A DNA stretch of 64,000 bases from Microthyrium microscopicum (lineage: Eukaryota). Under the pieces are notes generated by a model. The model ran no database searches and had not been told where the DNA came from. It saw nothing but the letters and a program-made list of their open reading frames with translations. Positions 9,456 through 19,379 of the stretch are shown here, one piece after another. The position numbers and the translations under genes are program-made. Position 1 is the first letter of the stretch, and each line of letters starts with the position of its first letter. The stretch is taken from contig MU004244.1 in the NCBI GenBank assembly GCA_010405405.1, positions 623,895-687,894 of the forward strand, given 5' to 3'.

Positions 9456-10169
9456 TCAGTAATAGCCACAAGTAGTCCATGTCGCCCTCACTAGAGTTGG
9501 ACATATCATGTTGGCCGTACAGTTTGCATCTTCGTGTAAAATGTGGTTCAGAAGAACTTTCTCGCAGTGCATAGTATGTTTCCAATGTGATAAGTCGCTG
9601 TCGATTGGTAGATGATCGAGCAGTACTCCATGCATCTTTCGCCACATATATGTGCAATGAATCTGGTGGTAACTTCGTGGTGCAAATGCTTGTGGGTGAT
9701 CGCCCCGAAAGAGTTGCTCCATGGGAATTTTGTTCTGCAGTTTGGGATCAGAGTACCATGCCCAGTCATTTCGCTTCATGAAGTCGTCCAAAAGATCTTC
9801 ATGATAGCACTCTGGCCTAACCCAAATGTAGCTCATGGGGTCAAAAACGCAGCCATGTGCTCGGGCTTCTTCGATAGTTTTGTTGCTGCCACAAGTGCCG
9901 AGCTCGATTCCCGTGGGGAAGAGGTGAACATGCTTCTGCAACTTCCAGGTTTGAAAGGCCGTCCAGCATATCAAGGCGAAGGCAAAGACGGCCAGGCCAC
10001 AGAGTACAAATCTGTAGAGCCGATGAGAAGCTCTGGCAGTGCGGTTCTTGTGCCAACCCTCTGCGTCAGTGGAGGTAATCAAAGGCGCCGTGCTGGAGTC
10101 GAGATAAGTCGCTTTATCGAGTGTGATTGTTGAATCGGTGGACGTTCGGTAATCACTGGCAGTGGCCAT
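9456..10169 (-). CDS. HxxHC-HxxHC (DUF3328-related, PhomB-like subtype) RiPP tailoring protein Y1
   Basis: Intronless. N-terminal TM helix (FVLCGLAVFAFALICW), CG...EEARAHGCVFDPMSYIW, HQIHCTYMWRKMH and HTMHC motifs. Probable start MATASDY at 10169. Confidence 0.8.
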   Translation of the reverse strand: MATASDYRTSTDSTITLDKATYLDSSTAPLITSTDAEGWHKNRTARASHRLYRFVLCGLAVFAFALICWTAFQTWKLQKHVHLFPTGIELGTCGSNKTIEEARAHGCVFDPMSYIWVRPECYHEDLLDDFMKRNDWAWYSDPKLQNKIPMEQLFRGDHPQAFAPRSYHQIHCTYMWRKMHGVLLDHLPIDSDLSHWKHTMHCEKVLLNHILHEDANCTANMICPTLVRATWTTCGYY

Positions 10170-10777
10170 TGTCAATAATTGGTAAGGATATAGAGTGTTC
10201 AAACTTGAGTGACTAAGAAACAAATCTGCGAGCTCCCGTCCAGTGTCACGGCGCAGAGGCATTAAAGGAGAAGACTCGAGCACAACAGACTGCTATGGAA
10301 ATAGAACTGGCGGATTCACTGCGCCGCAGGAAATTTTGACGGATCACCTTGCAGGATGAGGATCCATATTATGGGTAGCAACAGATCTACGAGTTATGCA
10401 ACGCCGCACAAAGCAAATGAAGTCGACAGACTATCAGAATTACCAGGGACCTCAGGAGCAGGATGAAGAGGATCTATATAACCCCGGTTATCACCCCATG
10501 TTTGAGTGCTCACATATCAAATCATTGCATGCGTCAACCGGCTTAGACACAGAGGCTTCTAGGATTGCCCTGCCTTACCTGCTTCTGCCCTGCCATTACA
10601 GCTAACGTCACTTCAATGGCAATAAGGCTGGCTGTGCCGCAAATGTTGGGCCACTCAATCAAGAAGATAGAACCGTCAAGAATAGCCATTCTGTCGAGCT
10701 GGCTTCTGGGGTCATTAAGGTTTTATCTCGACTTTTCATTACTTCGTTGCACATTTGCCTTCTGACGGAAAGATATT

Positions 10778-11861
10778 ATGGAGAAATTGTCATCTGCCTT
10801 ACCAAAGCGATTGTTCCATGGCGAATACCATAGACTACCTCTGCACGAAGAGCCGCGTACTTATACAGACAATTCTGTTCACAGGCTGGGTGGAAACGAT
10901 CGCAAAAACTGGCGGCAGGTTGCTGAACGAGTGCTTCCATGGCTACTTGTTTTAACATTCGCCTGCACAACGATTGCCCTTCTAGTTTCTAGCAGCTCCG
11001 AAGCTTCGGATAGCTGTAAAGAACGGAAAGGCTGGACAACAGACTTTAGTATGTTCTTAGATCTGCCGATCGAGGCTTTCCTCCTGACGCTGTAGTGCCT
11101 GCTACACCGGCGATTGAACATGAAATTGTCTACTTTAGTGGAAGTCCTGCGATTGCGGAGAATGGATCACTATTTATACCGAACCCAGATCCAGTGCGAT
11201 ATATTGGAGAACCCAATGCTGAAGTTGACAAGAACTGGGATGAGCTTACTTGGGGTGAATCTCTCTTCCTCGTTCCCTAATATTAACTAAAAGATCCTAG
11301 GCCGTTATTTCTTGATTACTGAGGATGAAGCGAAGTCAGCTTGGGGAGACGACGTAGGAGAGTTCTGGGATGAAAAACAAGGCGGATACGTGGCAGGGTA
11401 ATGTTCAATATTCCAGCCGTTGTGCCTCCATTTTAGCCACTGACTTCTCAAAGCATCGATATGTTTCATACGCTTCACTGTGTGGTAAGTAGAGCCCTGA
11501 AATCAACAACTCTTATTAATTGAAAGAGCAGGACCAGATAAGGAAACTTCTGCATGCGCCGCATTACAACATTACAATTTCCACGAATACTGCCCTCCAT
11601 CGTGATCATTGTTTGGAGCAAATTCGGCAGTATATTATGTGTGCTGGGGTAAGTCCTTGCGAAAAAAAGGAGTTTAGCATGTCACTAACATGCTTGTAGG
11701 ATTTGACGCCAATTCCGACAAAGTTTTATTCAGGACTGGGTCGGAACTACGTAGACTCGGACTACCCTCACACCTGTCGAAACTTCCAGAAGCTGCACGA
11801 CTGGGTCCTTGATAGATATGAGGGAGCATCCGCTGTACACAGTACAACCCAGGGACCGTAG
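10778..11861 (+). CDS. DUF3328/UstYa-family oxidase Y2 (6 exons)
   Basis: Spliced by eye: TM helix (VLPWLLVLTFACTTIALLV), GEPNAEVDKNWDEL, IDMFHTLHCV, HRDHCLEQIRQYIMCAG/DLTPIP, HTCRNFQKLHDW; stop TAG 11859-11861. Canonical UstYa signature with GT-AG introns. Confidence 0.92.
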
Positions 11862-12549
11862 AATCATACTGGTATCTTAATTAGTGACTCGAATACGCTG
11901 GTATATCGTCTATCTAGCTCTGTTAGGGTCTTAGAAGACTATATTGTCAATTTCAGTAGTCTAGTAAGCTTTGTGAGGCTTTAAGCGGCATACCTCAGGT
12001 CAATTTCTTCTTCAACCTCCTTGTGTGTGCTTGAGCTTGATTCTCATTGTATGAAATTGACTTGATTGGAAGAAGCTTGGAGCTATGTCGCCAGTTTCCT
12101 AAAGCAACCTATATCGTATTCAATTAAACCTTATTTTTATTACTCCAAGCAAAGGTGAACTGAATGTACTCGCCTCCTAGTGTGATAAAAATGTCTTTTC
12201 GTGAGACTAGAGCATCCTTTCTCGAGTCATATCACTAGAGAGTATCAACTACATAAAAACACATATACCTAGTCCTGGATGTGCTGGCTACCAGGTTGGC
12301 AATCCTAAATACCTACCCGGGCAGGTAGTCTCATACGCATTAGAGCATGCGGCACAGCTATGTGAGTCTCGGCGAGATGGAGCTTAGGCCAGAGGATATT
12401 GCTTAGCGGATGCACATTACATGTTTAGAGCTGCCTATTCTAGTTCGGGATGCATACTCAACACGAGTCCTACTGCTCCTGCACAACCAGTGCGGCGAAC
12501 TTGGAGAATTAGGCCCAATCTAGATACTATTGTTTGTAAGATTTGTTGG

Positions 12550-12557
12550 TATATATA
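12550..12557 (+). promoter_or_regulatory. Putative TATA element of the precursor gene
   Basis: TATATATA about 100 bp upstream of the ATG at 12658, followed by a CA-rich leader ending CAACATG. Confidence 0.4.
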
Positions 12558-12657
12558 TCAGCATATGGCTCAATGAATCAGTTGGCCATACACAAAACTA
12601 AAGCCATTCAAAATCTCATTACCAATAGTCCAACTAAACACCCAGTTCTTGATCAAC

Positions 12658-13051
12658 ATGAAGACTTTCGCCACTTTCACCGCTCTTATTCTCTCTGTTT
12701 CGGCACTGCCGCTCGCAGCTCCTAAGGTAAGAGTGCAAAACAATCAAGAGGTCTGCTAAATCATCTTTTTAGGTAGCAACCGGTTCTCAGCAGGAAGGTG
12801 TTGTCACCTGGGCAGATGTTTCTAAACGGTCTGAGGCTCAGGCCGAAGGTGTTGTCACATGGGCAGATGTCTCCAAGCGCGATGGGGCGCAGAAAGAGGG
12901 CGTTGTTACTTGGGCAGACGTTAGCAAACGAGATGGAGCTCAAAAGGAAGGTGTTGTTACTTGGGCTGATGTTTCCAAGCGCAACGAGGCTCAGAAAGAG
13001 GGTGTTGTAACTTGGGCAGACGTCAGCAAACGCAGTAGCGATGACTACTAA
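12658..13051 (+). CDS. Kex2-processed repeat protein / RiPP precursor peptide (115 aa, 2 exons)
   Basis: Exon 1 12658-12726 MKTFATFTALILSVSALPLAAPK (signal-peptide-like). Intron 12727-12772 (GTAAGA...GCTAAA...TTTAG). Exon 2 VATGSQQEGVVTWADVSKR-SEAQAEGVVTWADVSKR-DGAQKEGVVTWADVSKR-DGAQKEGVVTWADVSKR-NEAQKEGVVTWADVSKR-SSDDY*. Confidence 0.93.
12779..13033 (+). repeat. Coding tandem repeat, 5 x 51 bp
   Basis: Five 51-bp units, each ending in Lys-Arg codons; differences within EGVVTWADVSKR are all synonymous. Confidence 0.95.
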
Positions 13052-13954
13052 GTACGGTCAATTCTTTTGATATTGGCGCCTTTGGCCTTTCATTTCTATT
13101 ACATATCGCTTTGAGTTGGAAATGTCAATCCTACCAGTCTCAAGTCCAATGTTACAACTTTCTTTAATCTTATCGCTCGTATGACCATACTTTGTTCAAG
13201 TAAACTCTTGGGATATGATGCGGATTCTTCGTTTTGAGTAAAATTGCGTTACAACTTAATGGAAAGTGCGATGATCATTTGCTTCTATGCGAATACATTC
13301 TCAGCGCATAATGACAACGCTAATTTTACATTCTAGCGGATTGGACTCATCAGCTCAGCTGCAAAGAACAAGATGTTCGTTTAGCCTCTCCTTCGGAGGC
13401 GTAGGGTTTGATCTGGTCATTTCTCTCGAATCCTCAATATATTGACTAACTTCCCCTTGCTATAGTTACATTGTTTGAATCCTTCTAATCCTTCAGGTGG
13501 ATATGTAAATATCCCAACCACTTCACCTGCTTTTCCAGGTCCACTGGCAGGCAGAATGCAAGATCCATTCAAGGATTAACGGAGAATAACTAAGGTGTAT
13601 CCAGTTATGCTTGTCGACCTAAGGCTACTACATATTTCCCTGGATACGGTAACCAGTTATGGCATTGATTAACAAATTCATTGGACTAGAAAGCAAAATA
13701 TAACTATCTTGGGTACCAAGCAGAGTCTAGTAGCAGAATCCAATAACAAGAGAACGGAACTGTAACCAGGGTGTCGCTGATCGAGCAGATCAATTGATTG
13801 TGTATAACCCTGTCCGCCATATCGGGTTGCCTCTGGGCACGCACTTTATCGATGGATTCGCTTCTCTGTCACTGAGAGATGATGAGAAGCCTTTCACCCA
13901 TATCTACCTGTGACCGTGTATTCGAGCTTGTCAGTCTCCGATAAACGTCAAATC

Positions 13955-14969
13955 ATGGCTTCTGCGCAAACTCTCACTTACCTCGGCAATTGTCATTGCG
14001 GTGGCTATCGATTTGAAATCTCCCTGCCCAGAATCGAGAGTGCCATCTCCTGTTCATGCAGCGTTTGTTCGAAGAAGGATTCTCTGTGGGTGATCCCCGA
14101 GGAAAAAGCCTTTCGGGTGGTTCGGGATGACGGGCACTTGGTCGAATATGAGTCCAGATCATTAAAGGAAAAGGTAGCCAGACAATGTATTCTGAGACCC
14201 TGTACAGATAGTCATGCTAACAGTGAACCAGTTCTGTGGTTCTTGTGGCACGCAAGTGACTGCAGAGCATCAAATCGGAGATCTAGCGCGATGTTTTCTT
14301 GTTAACATCCGGACCATACGAAGTCCATACGTCAATCCGTTTCAGCTCAAGTACTTCACTCCTCTGATGAGTTTTCAAAGTCTTACTCTCAAAAGGAAAA
14401 CCATTATGACGGCCAGCGTTGTCGACAAGAATGAAGCAAAACAGATAGCAGTTGGCGCATCGCATGCTCTAACACAACATAATTTCGTCTGTCACTGCCA
14501 GCGGATTCGAGCAGAGTTGCTTGTCACTCTCCAAGACCAGGAGATCAAGGAAGATAATTGCAGTGCTTGCGTCAGGGTATGTCGGATTCCTCAACAGCAT
14601 ATTTGATTGTATAAAGATACTTAACGTTGACAGAATGCCTATATTGGTGTGTACCCTAAGAAAGAGCAAGTCATAATATATGGAAGAGAGAATGGCTTTG
14701 AGTATCTTACAGGTCGTAAATACAGTGGAGCAGTACATTGCAAAACATGTGGCGTCCAAGTCTTTAGCAACATCTATGGACCGCCGAGAAGCATGTTTGA
14801 TAAACTTGCCCCAGAGAGAAAGGAAAAGGCTCTGAAGGTATACCACAAGAATATGCAGCTTCAGCCCCTGAATGTTCGAGCAGTAGAGGGAGTTGATATA
14901 TCTTCACTTCATATCATACGATCAGACGAAGGAACAGAGGGCTACAAGCTTGATGAGGAGAAACATTAG
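13955..14969 (+). CDS. Tandem GFA/CENP-V (Mss4-like, Zn-binding) domain protein (4 exons)
   Basis: Domain 1 GNCHCG...CSCSVCSKK...FCGSCG; domain 2 VCHCQ...DNCSACVR/NAYIGVYP...HCKTCGVQVF...LNVRAVEGVD. Three short GT-AG introns. Confidence 0.85.
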
Positions 14970-15046
14970 AGCCGCGGATTCACAAATCTCATTCATATAT
15001 AGCACAATAAACTCTCTGTGAATTTTGCCCGCTCGAGAAACTAGCT

Positions 15047-15785
15047 TTATCTGCGAATTGAAGCTTTATGCTTCTTGGCCCATTCAAGAATCTGACTCCA
15101 GTCTCGACATTTGCGGTGTTCTACATTCCAACCATTTATCGCTCGGTGCACGCCTTTGAATGCGTCCTGCGCCGGCTCAATGGTAACATCTCCTGCGCAC
15201 ATCAATGACTGTCTAACGTAATCAAAACAATGGTCAATATGTTTGTGAAGATACGCTTCTGAGGAGTTGTAGTCTAGCTGTAACAATTGGTCCCTCGTTG
15301 TAGATTGCAGTTCTCCCGTGAGAAGATTATAATAATTGTTTCTGATCATCTCCAAACAGTGCAATTGGTGAAAAACAGAGACACCGTAGTGGTCGGCGCC
15401 ATAAGGTTGCTGTATTCCAGGCGCAAGGCGAAGCTGTCGTTGGTGCCGTTTGTTGATCTCAAGGAAACCGCCCCCAGCTGTAAAGAGGGATCGTCAGTTA
15501 TATCACGATGGCATTTAGTGTTCTTTACCTGGGCGCATACTGCTCCAAGCCTCAGAAGACTTGTTGCCGGAAAATATGGAGAAATTGTCATTTGGCTGAA
15601 AGACTTTGCGAACAACTCGTACTAGCATAAACTTAGTATAGTTCTGATTACTTTCACGGTTATGTCTCACCATCTATACAAAAGTCGTTGAAGAAATAGA
15701 TTGACTTAATCGTTGTTATACATAAACTGACAGCCAGGAAAACTGACAGTGCTTGGAGACCTATCCGAACCAGTGATGAAACCAT
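15047..15785 (-). CDS. DUF3328/UstYa-family oxidase Y3 (3 exons)
   Basis: MVSSLVRIGLQALSVFLAVSLCIT (TM), introns 15622-15670 and 15478-15528, AWSSMRPAGGGF, VSVFHQLHCLEMIR, HIDHCFDYVRQSLMCAGDVTIEP, GWNVEHRKCRDW. Confidence 0.92.
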
Positions 15786-16568
15786 CTTTGCATAAGGTCA
15801 AGACAAAGGGGCAATGCTCATAGAGATTTCAAGAATGTCCGACCTGGTGAATGCGTAAGTCAAGTACTTGAGTAGGTTGTGGAATTGAAGCTGGTGTTGA
15901 GAATCGAACTTGTTTGTGTAGAGTGCAACATGCTTGTGGACCCGACTGTCCATGGCCGGTTCATGCGGCATGCCCAACGTTCGAGTGGGAGTGTTGAGCA
16001 TGGCGTACCATTAAAATCCTGCTTCCAGATCCCATGTTCTGGAAATCAATATTGCAGAATCCCAATGGTCAATCATCTACCAGGGCTGAAAAGCGATGTA
16101 CCAGCTCGGAGGATTAGTTGCGGCACAGTATAATTTGCAGGATCGCCGTGACTAGTTTTGAAATCTAGCTGTACCCTAGTTGTCGATTTGCGAATCCTGA
16201 TGCCTTACTCATTCATATACACTGGGTCGATCATTAAAAAGGATCGCGGAGTTCCAAGGAGCAACTAGTGCGGTCGTAAAATATCCAAGGCATCACTTGA
16301 ACATGGTTGAAGGTATTGGGAATACTTCGCCGCCTGATCATGAAAATAGAAGGAAACGTTTTCAGACACAAGCCGAGAAAAGAGAATAGGACCTGATTCA
16401 TAGGATGTAAGGGAGATCCTGATTCTGAAATCATCCCTTTGCTGTGACGACCTACTTCGGGGAGATTTGATCAATTACAAGTACGTAGCATTGTACAACA
16501 GCTCTTCATACCAATCTCTCTATATTCCAACTTTCAAGCTGAGCACTGGCTACAGTAATTGCTCCAAA

Positions 16569-17222
16569 ATGCCTGCACATATCCTAACACCACCGACGAA
16601 AGAGCTAGTTTTGAAATTGTCAACGAAACATAGACGACGCAGTGTGCTGGGCATCCTACTTTTTGGAGTGGCTTTCGCGTTAGCCATTGTCATAGTGTAC
16701 TTTGACCTGCTTGAACAGACCAAGTTCATGAAGGTACCATATGAAGCGCCGTGTGGCGATACATCCTCTGAGGCTCAACGCAAAGGGTGTCATTTTGACA
16801 CAATGGCGTTCAGTTGGGTCCCTCCAGCTTGCTATGACGGCGAGCTAGAAAAGGAATTTCTAAGCAAGAAGGACTGGGTGTGGTTCCTGGAGGAGAATAA
16901 CAATATTACAATTTCCCCTGAGGTCGTCCAAACAGGGGATATAAACGTTGCATGGGTGACTTGGGAATATCACCAAACTCACTGCACATATATGTGGCGA
17001 AAAATGCACCGAGCAGTCGCTGCATCAACACCTCTGGATGGATACATCCGCGACTATCATCATACTGCGCACTGCGAGGTGATGTTGCTGCAGGATGTCA
17101 CAGATAATCGGAAGCAACGAGAGTCAATTTATATCAAATACCCAAACTGTGGTGGGCCAGACGTTGGACACCTTGGATGGTTTAGAGTCATCAATGGCAA
17201 GCGCTATCATCGAGATCCCTAA
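16569..17222 (+). CDS. HxxHC-HxxHC (DUF3328-related, PhomB-like subtype) RiPP tailoring protein Y4
   Basis: Intronless paralogue of Y1: TM helix (VLGILLFGVAFALAIVIVYF), CGDTSSEAQRKGCHFDTMAFSW, HQTHCTYMWRKMH, HTAHC. Probable start MPAHIL at 16569. Confidence 0.8.
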   Translation: MPAHILTPPTKELVLKLSTKHRRRSVLGILLFGVAFALAIVIVYFDLLEQTKFMKVPYEAPCGDTSSEAQRKGCHFDTMAFSWVPPACYDGELEKEFLSKKDWVWFLEENNNITISPEVVQTGDINVAWVTWEYHQTHCTYMWRKMHRAVAASTPLDGYIRDYHHTAHCEVMLLQDVTDNRKQRESIYIKYPNCGGPDVGHLGWFRVINGKRYHRDP

Positions 17223-17351
17223 GCTACTGCTCGAAGGGTTAGACACACCTGATACTAGATACTATCGTATGCTGGCTCTGGAGTGTCGCCTCAGTTCGCG
17301 CTATACCCATCATTGAAAGAACACGATTTTAGGTCTGGATAGGTAAACATA

Positions 17352-17990
17352 CCGTAGCGTGGAGGGGGGAGTAAAGGACTTGATATTTTAATGAAACTAC
17401 ATGATCTTTTGAAGTCTTTTTAGAAGTCTATTCTTCTCTAGAAGATGATGTCTTGAGTAAACCTTATGTTCTGTGAATAAAAGTAATTACGACTAAAGAT
17501 AAAGAAGGCACGATAGGATGTTAGTAAGAATGAAAGGATAAAGTATAGGAGCTAAATAGATTAGGGGCTATATATATAAGCTTAGTAATTTATACTCTAT
17601 TATTATAAAACCCCTAGTAAAATATAGTCATAATTCTGCCTTGCTTAACTAAGCTATAGCGTATTAATCTAGCCTAATTTATAATTTAAATTATAATTTA
17701 TTTAAAAAAAGTATTTATTGCTAGTTGTCTTGCTCTCTTAATCCTTTATTGAATTTAATAGTAATTTTTTTTGCCCCTCTTTATAGCTATAATATAGCTA
17801 AAAAATAGCTAAAACATAGTTTTTTTAGAAAATGCTTTTGTAAATAGAAAATATAGGTTTTCTAAAATAGGTATCTTCTCTTAGAAAGTAGCATCGATTG
17901 TACCTCTCTGCAGAATATACATTTTCTTGTCTAGAAGCTTCATAGGATGATCACTGGTAAATTTCCTCTACCCCCCCTCGCGCGCTACGG
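17352..17990. mobile_element. Decayed non-autonomous DNA transposon (Tc1/mariner-type MITE), RIP-like
   Basis: Imperfect TIRs: CCGTAGCGTGGAGGGGGGAGTAAAGGA on the left versus reverse complement CCGTAGCGCGCGAGGGGGGGTAGAGGA on the right. TA on both flanks (17350-51, 17991-92). Interior is very AT/TpA-rich with no ORF. Confidence 0.8.
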
Positions 17991-19379
17991 TAGAGAGCTT
18001 GCGAGAATATACTTTCATCAACCACGACCTGAAATGGTAACACGAGTCTCAAGACTAGAAGTTTATGATTGAATAATGTTTTTGTCACGATGTTTTTTCA
18101 GCAAGGTACTGCAGTTGAGGCAATCGGTCAACACTTACGCGATGTGTGAGGAGCTTGCTCATTTTTCTACCCGAGAAGTAGGGCGTAGCAAACCCCGACA
18201 ATTGTCACGATTATTGGGCCAAAAACAGAAGAAATGGTTACTGAATTATTACAACATTAATTGAGAACTTTAGGAGCCTTTCAGTATCGAGTGTCATGGT
18301 ACGGTAGACATCAGGGTGGAGGGGAGGAAGTCGCAGAGCTTGCTGATTTTGCCGGGAGAGGTCGCGCCTCTTGTTCTTTCCATGTTGAATCTAGCGTGGC
18401 TTCCACGTCGCGAACTCGCGGCAAATATTAACGTGGGTAACGCGCCGCGTGGTTTCTTTCCCGGCAAGTCAAGCTGGCAACCGTGATGGGTACTGACAGG
18501 TACTTCTTCTCCCTTGCAAGGAGATATCTTATCGCGCTAGGTTATTGTGCCGAGACTTGAAGCACAATAGTATATACGATATGTCAATAAAAATAAATGG
18601 TACATACAGATTTAACGCAGTACGGATGACAGTCAGTAGATATTTAGCGACCGATTCGACTAGGCGCGGTTACCATGGTTGCAAGGAGTAGCAGCCGCTA
18701 TTGGCTACAGGACAGGCTTGTCCAACCACCGTGATTCCCTGACTTTAGCCTTGCAAGGCTTTGCTCAGAAAAAGACTCCACCATCTGAAGCTTTGATTAT
18801 TCTCTTGTGTGTCAAAACAGCTGCAACTCTTTTAGCCTTGACTCTTCCCCGCCTCCATCATTCTCTCATCCTCCATTTCCAAGAGTCCCACTCTCTACCT
18901 GCATTATCGTCAACTTCTTCACCTGCCCTGACCATAAACGCCCTGTTACACTGGCTAAAGTCTCTCCCCGCCACCTTGCATTCTTTCAGTCTACTCAAGG
19001 CCTGATTCAGTCGTGGCTACAGCACGCGTTGAAACATCGAGATACTTCCGAAACGCGCCATGCTGATCCGCGCTTGAGAGTACATCCGCATCGCGAACTC
19101 TCTTTTCTACTATTTTGCTTATTACTCGTACTACCCGACTCCACCCTGTCTGTCAAGCCTGTCTATACAACCCACTCTGCTATTCTCATTTGTACTCTGG
19201 CCTATTTCTCCGCCCGGCCTCTCAATACCTACTTATTCTAGCCCTTGCGCAATCTTCTCCCTTCTATCTCAAGCTCGCCTATATATTCCACATCTGCCTG
19301 CTTTGCGCATATAAACAAAACACTCAACAGAGTCACTACTTCCAATCGAGTCTACCGGCTACTTGCATTGGCCGCAATC

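Follow-up and report, generated by a model that had tools for sequence, protein, structure and literature searches.

A compact gene cluster at positions 9456 to 17222 of the 64,000-nucleotide window analysed here (Microthyrium microscopicum contig MU004244.1) contains four genes for membrane proteins with paired HxxHC motifs, named Y1 to Y4, and a gene for a short repeat-bearing precursor peptide. The order of genes is Y1, Y2, precursor, a GFA-like gene, Y3 and Y4, on the strands given in Table 1. We surmise, at about even chances, that this is a compact cluster of the dikaritin type, producing a peptide that is made on the ribosome and modified post-translationally (RiPP), in which Y1 and Y4 serve as stand-alone dicopper tailoring oxidases. 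Y2 and Y3 are canonical DUF3328 (UstYa) proteins, whereas Y1 and Y4 belong to a large, unannotated fungal family that is only remotely similar to DUF3328. A preliminary description of this DNA had drawn attention to the head-to-head placement of Y1 with Y2 and of Y3 with Y4 as the mark of obligate A/B partners. The interest of the cluster lies in the unannotated family and in a testable two-locus system, and little of it in the head-to-head layout.

Y1 and Y4 are encoded in uninterrupted frames and carry the motifs CG..A...GC.FD.M...W, HQxHCTYMWRKMH, and HTxHC. A hydrophobic helix is found near residues 54-72 of Y1 and 25-43 of Y4 (record P0001), and the HxxHC motifs lie at 168 and 198 in the former and at 135 and 165 in the latter. 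The two proteins are 32% identical over 170 amino acid residues (E-value 9e-30), in keeping with their earlier designation as paralogues; their kinship to UstYa comes down to a weak match between profiles, confined to the pair of HxxHC helices, and Y4 compared directly with Y3 gives an E-value of 0.079. Neither has a Pfam family at an E-value of 0.01, and Y4 scores 13.3 bits (E 0.075) against the UstYa family PF11807, which is under the curated cut-off of 25 bits. Y2 and Y3, at 132.6 and 101.6 bits, pass that cut-off, so that they were rightly described as intron-containing canonical DUF3328 proteins. Both carry a pair of HxxHC motifs and one membrane helix; the spliced model of Y2 has the same length and motif positions as database record P0181, and that of Y3 is identical to record P0033. 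Y2 and Y3 share 29% identity, and this value together with that for Y1 and Y4 rules out duplication of one A/B cassette. Each of the four proteins has a single strongly hydrophobic segment close to its N-terminus, besides N-glycosylation sequons and the pair of HxxHC motifs. A family tree from a quick search, in which 40 of 72 inner branches are open, does not join Y1 and Y4 and was unable to place either of them.

The AlphaFold models of Y3 (mean predicted local distance difference test score 80.5) and Y4 (90) reveal the same order of elements around the motifs, namely strand, HxxHC helix, loop, HxxHC helix, and strand. With helix positions taken from the model, the Y1/Y4 type carries HxxHC(x)nHxxHC on paired helices following the membrane anchor. 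Among solved structures no relative was found by sequence search, nor did Foldseek return a match at E 0.001 for the Y3 or Y4 model; a wide structure search with the whole Y4 model gave transmembrane-helix matches only (Z at most 4.1).

A search of 1.84 billion proteins with a profile built from 33 relatives recovers, at E 0.001, at least 2,384 representatives of the Y1/Y4 family. When 141 members are aligned, both HxxHC motifs are kept in 131, with a spacing of exactly 30 in 95, and six Cys, five His, and several Trp residues are at least 90% conserved; H135, H138, C139, H165, H168, and C169 (Y4 numbering) are invariant or at least 90% conserved. Named members, as judged from 20 of the 141 names, are "hypothetical" ascomycete proteins; the nearest Atlas clusters have no Pfam family in common, and NCBIfam holds no family for this type. 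All four proteins share with DUF3328 enzymes of the CctR/ApnU/AprY type the single N-terminal membrane helix, the apparently lumenal domain, and two HxxHC motifs on helices. Y1 and Y4 differ in lacking RQxxMCxxD, and possess instead a Cys-rich CG..A...GC.FD...W.P..C subdomain and the HCTYMWRKMH segment. Because the link to DUF3328 is thin, yet the order of elements around the motifs matches, we regard Y1 and Y4 as a sister family probably working like DUF3328 rather than as members of it.

The preliminary description had likened Y1 and Y4 to PhomB, reportedly a membrane protein of obscure function in the DUF3328-rich phomopsin RiPP cluster. A protein of that description would suit the neighbourhood observed here, and the likeness is tentative; no sequence named PhomB turned up in database and literature searches, including the 20 member names mentioned above. 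A literature search, which did not reach the primary ApnU, AprY, and phomopsin papers or the CctR supplement, gave no description of the family; it is likewise not described in the study of CctR (PMC12435403) or in the available passages of a lichen paper. Prior mention in the literature, including as PhomB, is possible.

The precursor is 115 amino acid residues long; its N-terminus is hydrophobic, and it contains five identical GVVTWADVS-KR units. Dikaritins are defined by a repeat precursor accompanied by UstYa homologues (PMC10512285, PMC6514808), and the window has a precursor with a signal-peptide-like N-terminus and Kex2-type KR repeats, next to which UstYa homologues are encoded. The same association of KR-repeat cores with UstYa genes typifies asperipin-2a (aprA/Y/T/R), ustiloxin, phomopsin, and epichloecyclin (PMC6514808, PMC10512285, PMC10540207, PMC7329392), and the asperipin cluster resembles the present one in being free of tyrosinase (PMC6514808). 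The products would differ. Those of the ustiloxin, phomopsin, and asperipin pathways contain Tyr ether rings, whereas such an ether is excluded here because the GVVTWADV core possesses Trp and no Tyr; moreover, two of the four twin-HxxHC genes of this cluster are Pfam-negative. A search of three supplementary files of PMC7329392, the text of which is possibly incomplete, did not find this core. That survey of fungal RiPPs recorded DUF3328 near 22% of 7,878 repeat precursors, as counted by the DUF3328 profile.

By analogy with known Kex2-processed repeat proteins, the precursor would enter the secretory pathway, where cleavage by Kex2 at KR would release five identical peptides with the core GVVTWADV, and four single-pass membrane proteins with lumenal twin-HxxHC domains would then oxidise this core. 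Y2 and Y3 presumably act as ordinary DUF3328 copper enzymes. Y1 and Y4, each with a complete site of four His and two Cys residues, may each constitute a dicopper oxidase in its own right, probably a homodimer like CctR, and would each add a separate modification in sequence. CctR itself is anchored in the membrane, its domain facing the lumen, and dimerises with itself through disulfide linkage; each monomer binds two coppers at the twin HxxHC motifs, and O2 and electrons are needed. Cu(II) alone suffices to make the purified homodimer active, and a reductant raises its activity (PMC12435403). No tyrosinase, methyltransferase, transporter, or regulator was found within the cluster. Since the core is without Tyr and the cluster without tyrosinase, the likeliest chemistry would be a cross-link of the Trp indole to an aliphatic C-H of Val, together with hydroxylation, desaturation, or halogenation, which would yield a cyclic peptide cross-linked at Trp and further oxidised. 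Plant BURP enzymes make Leu-x-x-Trp rings, which the V-x-x-W spacing of the core recalls. These plant BURP-domain cyclases (cited in PMC12435403) have a four-His dicopper site and cross-link side chains of repeat-encoded cores, and the cluster may work alike, although they are of a different sequence family from Y1 and Y4 and show no fold match in the whole-model structure searches.

Three further family genes are present in the M. microscopicum genome, none of them near a PF11807 match and none with a canonical gene within approximately 9 kb on either side. The most informative lies at L031:445-3000 (G000:C9, ~1,648,400-1,651,000), where a motif-intact family gene stands head-to-head, at a distance of 1 kb, with a KR-repeat precursor. 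This precursor is split by an intron and contains FVTWSS-type cores, which have VTW in common with the core of the window; the best canonical-profile score at the locus is 5.2 bits. The other two are solo genes at L029:537-1403 (G000:C12) and L032:8724-9518 (G000:C1), which are 62% alike and form a clade of their own, with Phe in place of the third conserved His of the MWRKMH segment; neither a precursor nor a canonical gene was seen near them. Conversely, L036:3900-8300 (G000:C8) and L034:5900-10000 (G000:C9) are candidate RiPP loci; in each, a repeat protein accompanies two canonical DUF3328 genes, the repeats being, respectively, one of 32 residues with WIPLNTSPGY and one rich in His-His and Lys; no family gene was seen within the stretches read of L034-L037. 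Each type thus occurs without the other, L031 having only the family gene and L034 and L036 only canonical ones. Because Y1 and Y4 keep the full motif and a family gene can stand alone beside a precursor, four separate copper oxidases acting in sequence would be the simplest arrangement.

Whether the head-to-head pairing is conserved was examined in a single scan of metagenome contigs, which yielded 34 loci; once near-identical copies are removed, 25 remain, and these hold 29 family genes. Selection of the loci relied on the motif of the HCTYMWRKMH segment, many of the contigs are short, and one cluster is split between L058 and L061. A profile of 60 canonical proteins was used to search for canonical genes, many of which Pfam confirmed. 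A canonical gene is present in 12 of the 25 loci and lies within 2.2 kb of 12 of the 29 family genes, while the chance of finding one within 3 kb of a random site in the Microthyrium genome is about 0.2% (a lower bound, with 15 genes counted). Repeat precursors are present in L049, L052, L053, L055, and L070. With canonical genes far above chance and repeat precursors nearby, the family belongs to RiPP-type clusters. The cores of these five precursors are of the FPEW, AINW, YIKRTGYG, and IYIGP/EYVGP types, and of the seven family-linked precursors, four have Trp in the repeated core.

Adjacent family and canonical genes form seven tail-to-tail, four tandem, and three head-to-head junctions over all loci, the last in L049, L052, and L070, which are independent; a further row scored as head-to-head (L045, 1.9 kb) was left out, another canonical gene lying in between. 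Short contigs favor tail-to-tail junctions, and a fair set was therefore defined as the 12 genes for which each flank is visible over at least 2.2 kb. Three of these are head-to-head with a canonical gene, three are otherwise adjacent to one, and six, including one broken copy, have none within 2.2 kb; L044, L053, and L055 represent one orthologous cluster type, so that the counts are not fully independent. One orthologous family/canonical pair (normalised scores 0.60-0.78 and 0.55-0.61) is found tail-to-tail in L039, in tandem in L045, and head-to-head in L052. Family-to-canonical ratios are 1:1 in L049 and L070, 2:1 in L052, 1:3 in L045, 2:3 in L043, and 3:2 in L058 plus L061, and the overall range includes 1:0. 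The two protein types do recur together, but not in a fixed head-to-head arrangement, and with orientations and ratios this variable the layout is not supported as a mark of obligate partners.

Two observations from the same scan concern the family in other settings. The cluster represented by L058, L059, and L061 contains three family genes, two of which are head-to-head with each other, two canonical genes, a major facilitator superfamily transporter, a cytochrome P450, and a UbiA prenyltransferase; no repeat precursor was detected in it, and it may reflect a non-RiPP use of the family. Broken copies, at L056:9905-10423 (in-frame stop) and L069:1733-2130 (frame breaks), occur in loci without canonical genes, which is consistent with decay after loss of the cluster.

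Several points weigh against Y1 and Y4 being self-sufficient oxidases. Their copper binding, catalysis, and dimer state, like the product and regulation of the cluster, are predicted from sequence. Homology to DUF3328 is weak: comparison of the family and DUF3328 profiles by hhalign gives a probability of 55.6 (E 1.2e-4) over 47 columns, which correspond to the two motif helices, and PF11807 is touched at E-values up to 1 by 14 of the 141 members (best 6.6e-4). The first named Atlas neighbors by features are UstYa clusters (0.85), with TM-scores of only 0.27-0.29. The strong linkage of the family to canonical genes, far above chance as it is, fits a partner role equally. So does the finding that similarity among family genes tracks similarity among their canonical neighbors (Mantel r 0.49, p 0.0014, 11 pairs), where the pairs were chosen after the maps were seen and whole-cluster inheritance alone would yield such a signal. 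Head-to-head junctions make up three of the eight adjacent junctions in the unbiased set, so that a mild enrichment is conceivable. Finally, canonical enzymes encoded elsewhere could serve the L031 precursor in trans.

One alternative is that Y1 and Y4 are accessory copper proteins, which would load Cu(I) onto the canonical DUF3328 enzymes of the lumen, or supply them with electrons, and leave the peptide untouched. This we consider unlikely, though worth keeping in view. An accessory supplier of electrons or Cu(I) has been hypothesized for CctR (PMC12435403), and the Y1/Y4 family is a concrete candidate for it. The nearly fixed HCTYMWRKMH segment, with its extra His, and the six conserved Cys residues stand beside very different cores (FPEW, AINW, YIKRTGYG, IYIGP), as might suit a helper; the constancy of the segment is, however, biased, because the loci were picked by the same motif. 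One family copy sits among three canonical genes in L045, and the two solo copies of M. microscopicum, far from any PF11807 match, could act in trans. On the other hand, family genes outnumber canonical ones in L052 and in L058 plus L061, and that of L031 adjoins a precursor and not a canonical gene. In Aspergillus oryzae, moreover, both asperipin-2a and the first intermediate of ustiloxin were made with no family gene added (PMC6514808), although host copies may serve there.

The arrangement originally envisaged, in which Y1-Y2 and Y3-Y4 are obligate heterodimers, with both subunits of a pair supplied from its divergent promoter and one modification installed per pair, appears improbable, though it may apply in particular lineages such as that of the L039/L045/L052 pair. 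DUF3328 enzymes do require dimerisation (PMC12435403), both pairs of the window mix the two types, and the layout recurs in the three independent loci. The orthologous pair also remains adjacent in L039, L045, and L052, and Y3 and Y4 are each modestly closest to it (normalised scores 0.36-0.45 and 0.39-0.44). These points are outweighed by the orientations and ratios described above, by the family-only and canonical-only precursor loci of the same genome, and by a promoter motif that extends over the whole cluster (see below). CctR is functional as a homodimer, and for ApnU and AprY activity after re-dimerisation on their own has been reported (PMC12435403). A literature search for UstYa heterodimers gave only unrelated papers among the matches listed. 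Weakest of all, and very improbable, is the proposal that Y1 and Y4 are dispensable or noncatalytic passengers, for instance in peptide binding or self-protection, with a convergent likeness in HxxHC: the weak similarity to DUF3328 in sequence and structure, the broken copies, and intact solo copies beside unrelated genes (L065, L046) would suit it, but the conservation of the twin motif and its spacing across the family, a membrane topology and helix order that match DUF3328, and strong linkage to canonical genes and precursors do not.

With regard to the family as a whole, we hold it somewhat less than evenly probable that it represents a second fungal dicopper class, comprising either self-sufficient cross-linkers of Trp cores or accessory Cu(I) or electron partners, possibly as a heterodimer subunit. 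DUF3328 enzymes have only recently been shown to be dicopper C-H oxidases. Since a sister family that escapes the profile lies beside precursors and canonical enzymes, a modifying enzyme may exist for some precursors regarded as "unmodified", and if family members cross-link cores by themselves, DUF3328-based mining would miss such clusters. The small cluster of two plus two genes and the one-gene locus L031, in one genome, make a clean test pair.

The 10-mer CTGTGCCGCA, a post hoc finding, has one copy in each divergent region (at 10632-10641 between Y1 and Y2) and one before the precursor (Table 1). The window has no other exact copy than these three; the 37.1 Mb genome as a whole has 89. 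In 200 shuffles the mean number of 10-mers shared three ways was 0.0, and in real DNA 8 of 3,000 triples share any 10-mer, the triples being drawn from this genome at large, intergenic or not. A one-mismatch copy is located at 10319-10328, in the Y1/Y2 region; allowing one mismatch, the 10-mer is not enriched across the whole window (6 against 3.3 expected), and no sharing by the promoters of the metagenome loci was evident. As a CGG-containing site, the 10-mer hints at a zinc-cluster factor. Because both divergent regions and the promoter of the precursor carry it, it ties the five genes together rather than each pair separately, which suggests cluster-wide rather than pair-wise control. The two regions had been called bidirectional promoters; each spans exactly from ATG to ATG, and promoter function is deduced from the layout and from a shared motif that is also found at the precursor. 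The head-to-head layout may reflect economical co-regulation, one motif serving both pairs and the precursor.

The coordinates of all features are collected in Table 1. The genes, motifs, introns, and head-to-head layout are as first described, judging by frames, splicing, and Pfam. Y2 is directly upstream of the precursor, and Y3 is 2 kb downstream of it.

Table 1. Features of the Microthyrium microscopicum cluster (positions in the window; aa, amino acids)
Feature	Position	Strand	Description
Y1	9456..10169	-	intronless, 237 aa, Pfam-negative twin-HxxHC membrane protein
Y1/Y2 divergent intergenic region	10170..10777	.	contains a copy of the 10-mer and a one-mismatch copy
Y2	10778..11861	+	canonical DUF3328/UstYa, 278 aa, five introns
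Y2 introns	11049-11095, 11255-11300, 11398-11453, 11485-11531, 11649-11699	+	
10-mer, third exact copy	12348..12357	-	~300 bp upstream of the precursor ATG
Precursor	12658..13051	+	putative Kex2-processed repeat precursor, 115 aa, intron 12727-12772
GFA/Mss4-like Cys-rich gene	13955..14969	+	one model: 299 aa, two introns
Y3	15047..15785	-	canonical DUF3328/UstYa, 212 aa; introns 15622-15670, 15478-15528
Y3/Y4 divergent intergenic region	15786..16568	.	10-mer at 16119-16128 (-)
Y4	16569..17222	+	intronless, 217 aa, Pfam-negative twin-HxxHC membrane protein

Splicing was checked against contigs from one public sequencing run, the RNA nature of which is only a guess. Intron 5 of Y2, both introns of Y3, and the intron of the precursor are skipped at GT..AG ends, by one contig each at a depth of 3-9; the run does not cover Y1, Y4, or the GFA-like gene and is uninformative on their expression. 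A 271-base contig from this run, at a depth of 39, maps to 11875-12139, just downstream of the Y2 stop codon, its coverage being roughly tenfold that of the contig over the Y2 coding sequence; it may represent a 3′ untranslated region or a separate small transcript.

The GFA/Mss4-like gene encodes a two-domain, Cys-rich protein and is tail-to-tail with Y3. Its membership in the cluster is uncertain: the Pfam GFA match (E 1.7e-4) is below the cut-off, no copy of the 10-mer lies upstream, and tblastn gave no match in loci L028-L071. The cluster is flanked on one side by a gene for a leucine-rich repeat protein and on the other by an AT-rich patch near 17,500. This patch (17340-18000) lies right after Y4, has a GC content of 0.29 with a TpA/ApT ratio of 1.36 at 17501-18000, and has contigs with several differences mapping to it; it resembles a repeat relic mutated by repeat-induced point mutation at the cluster edge.

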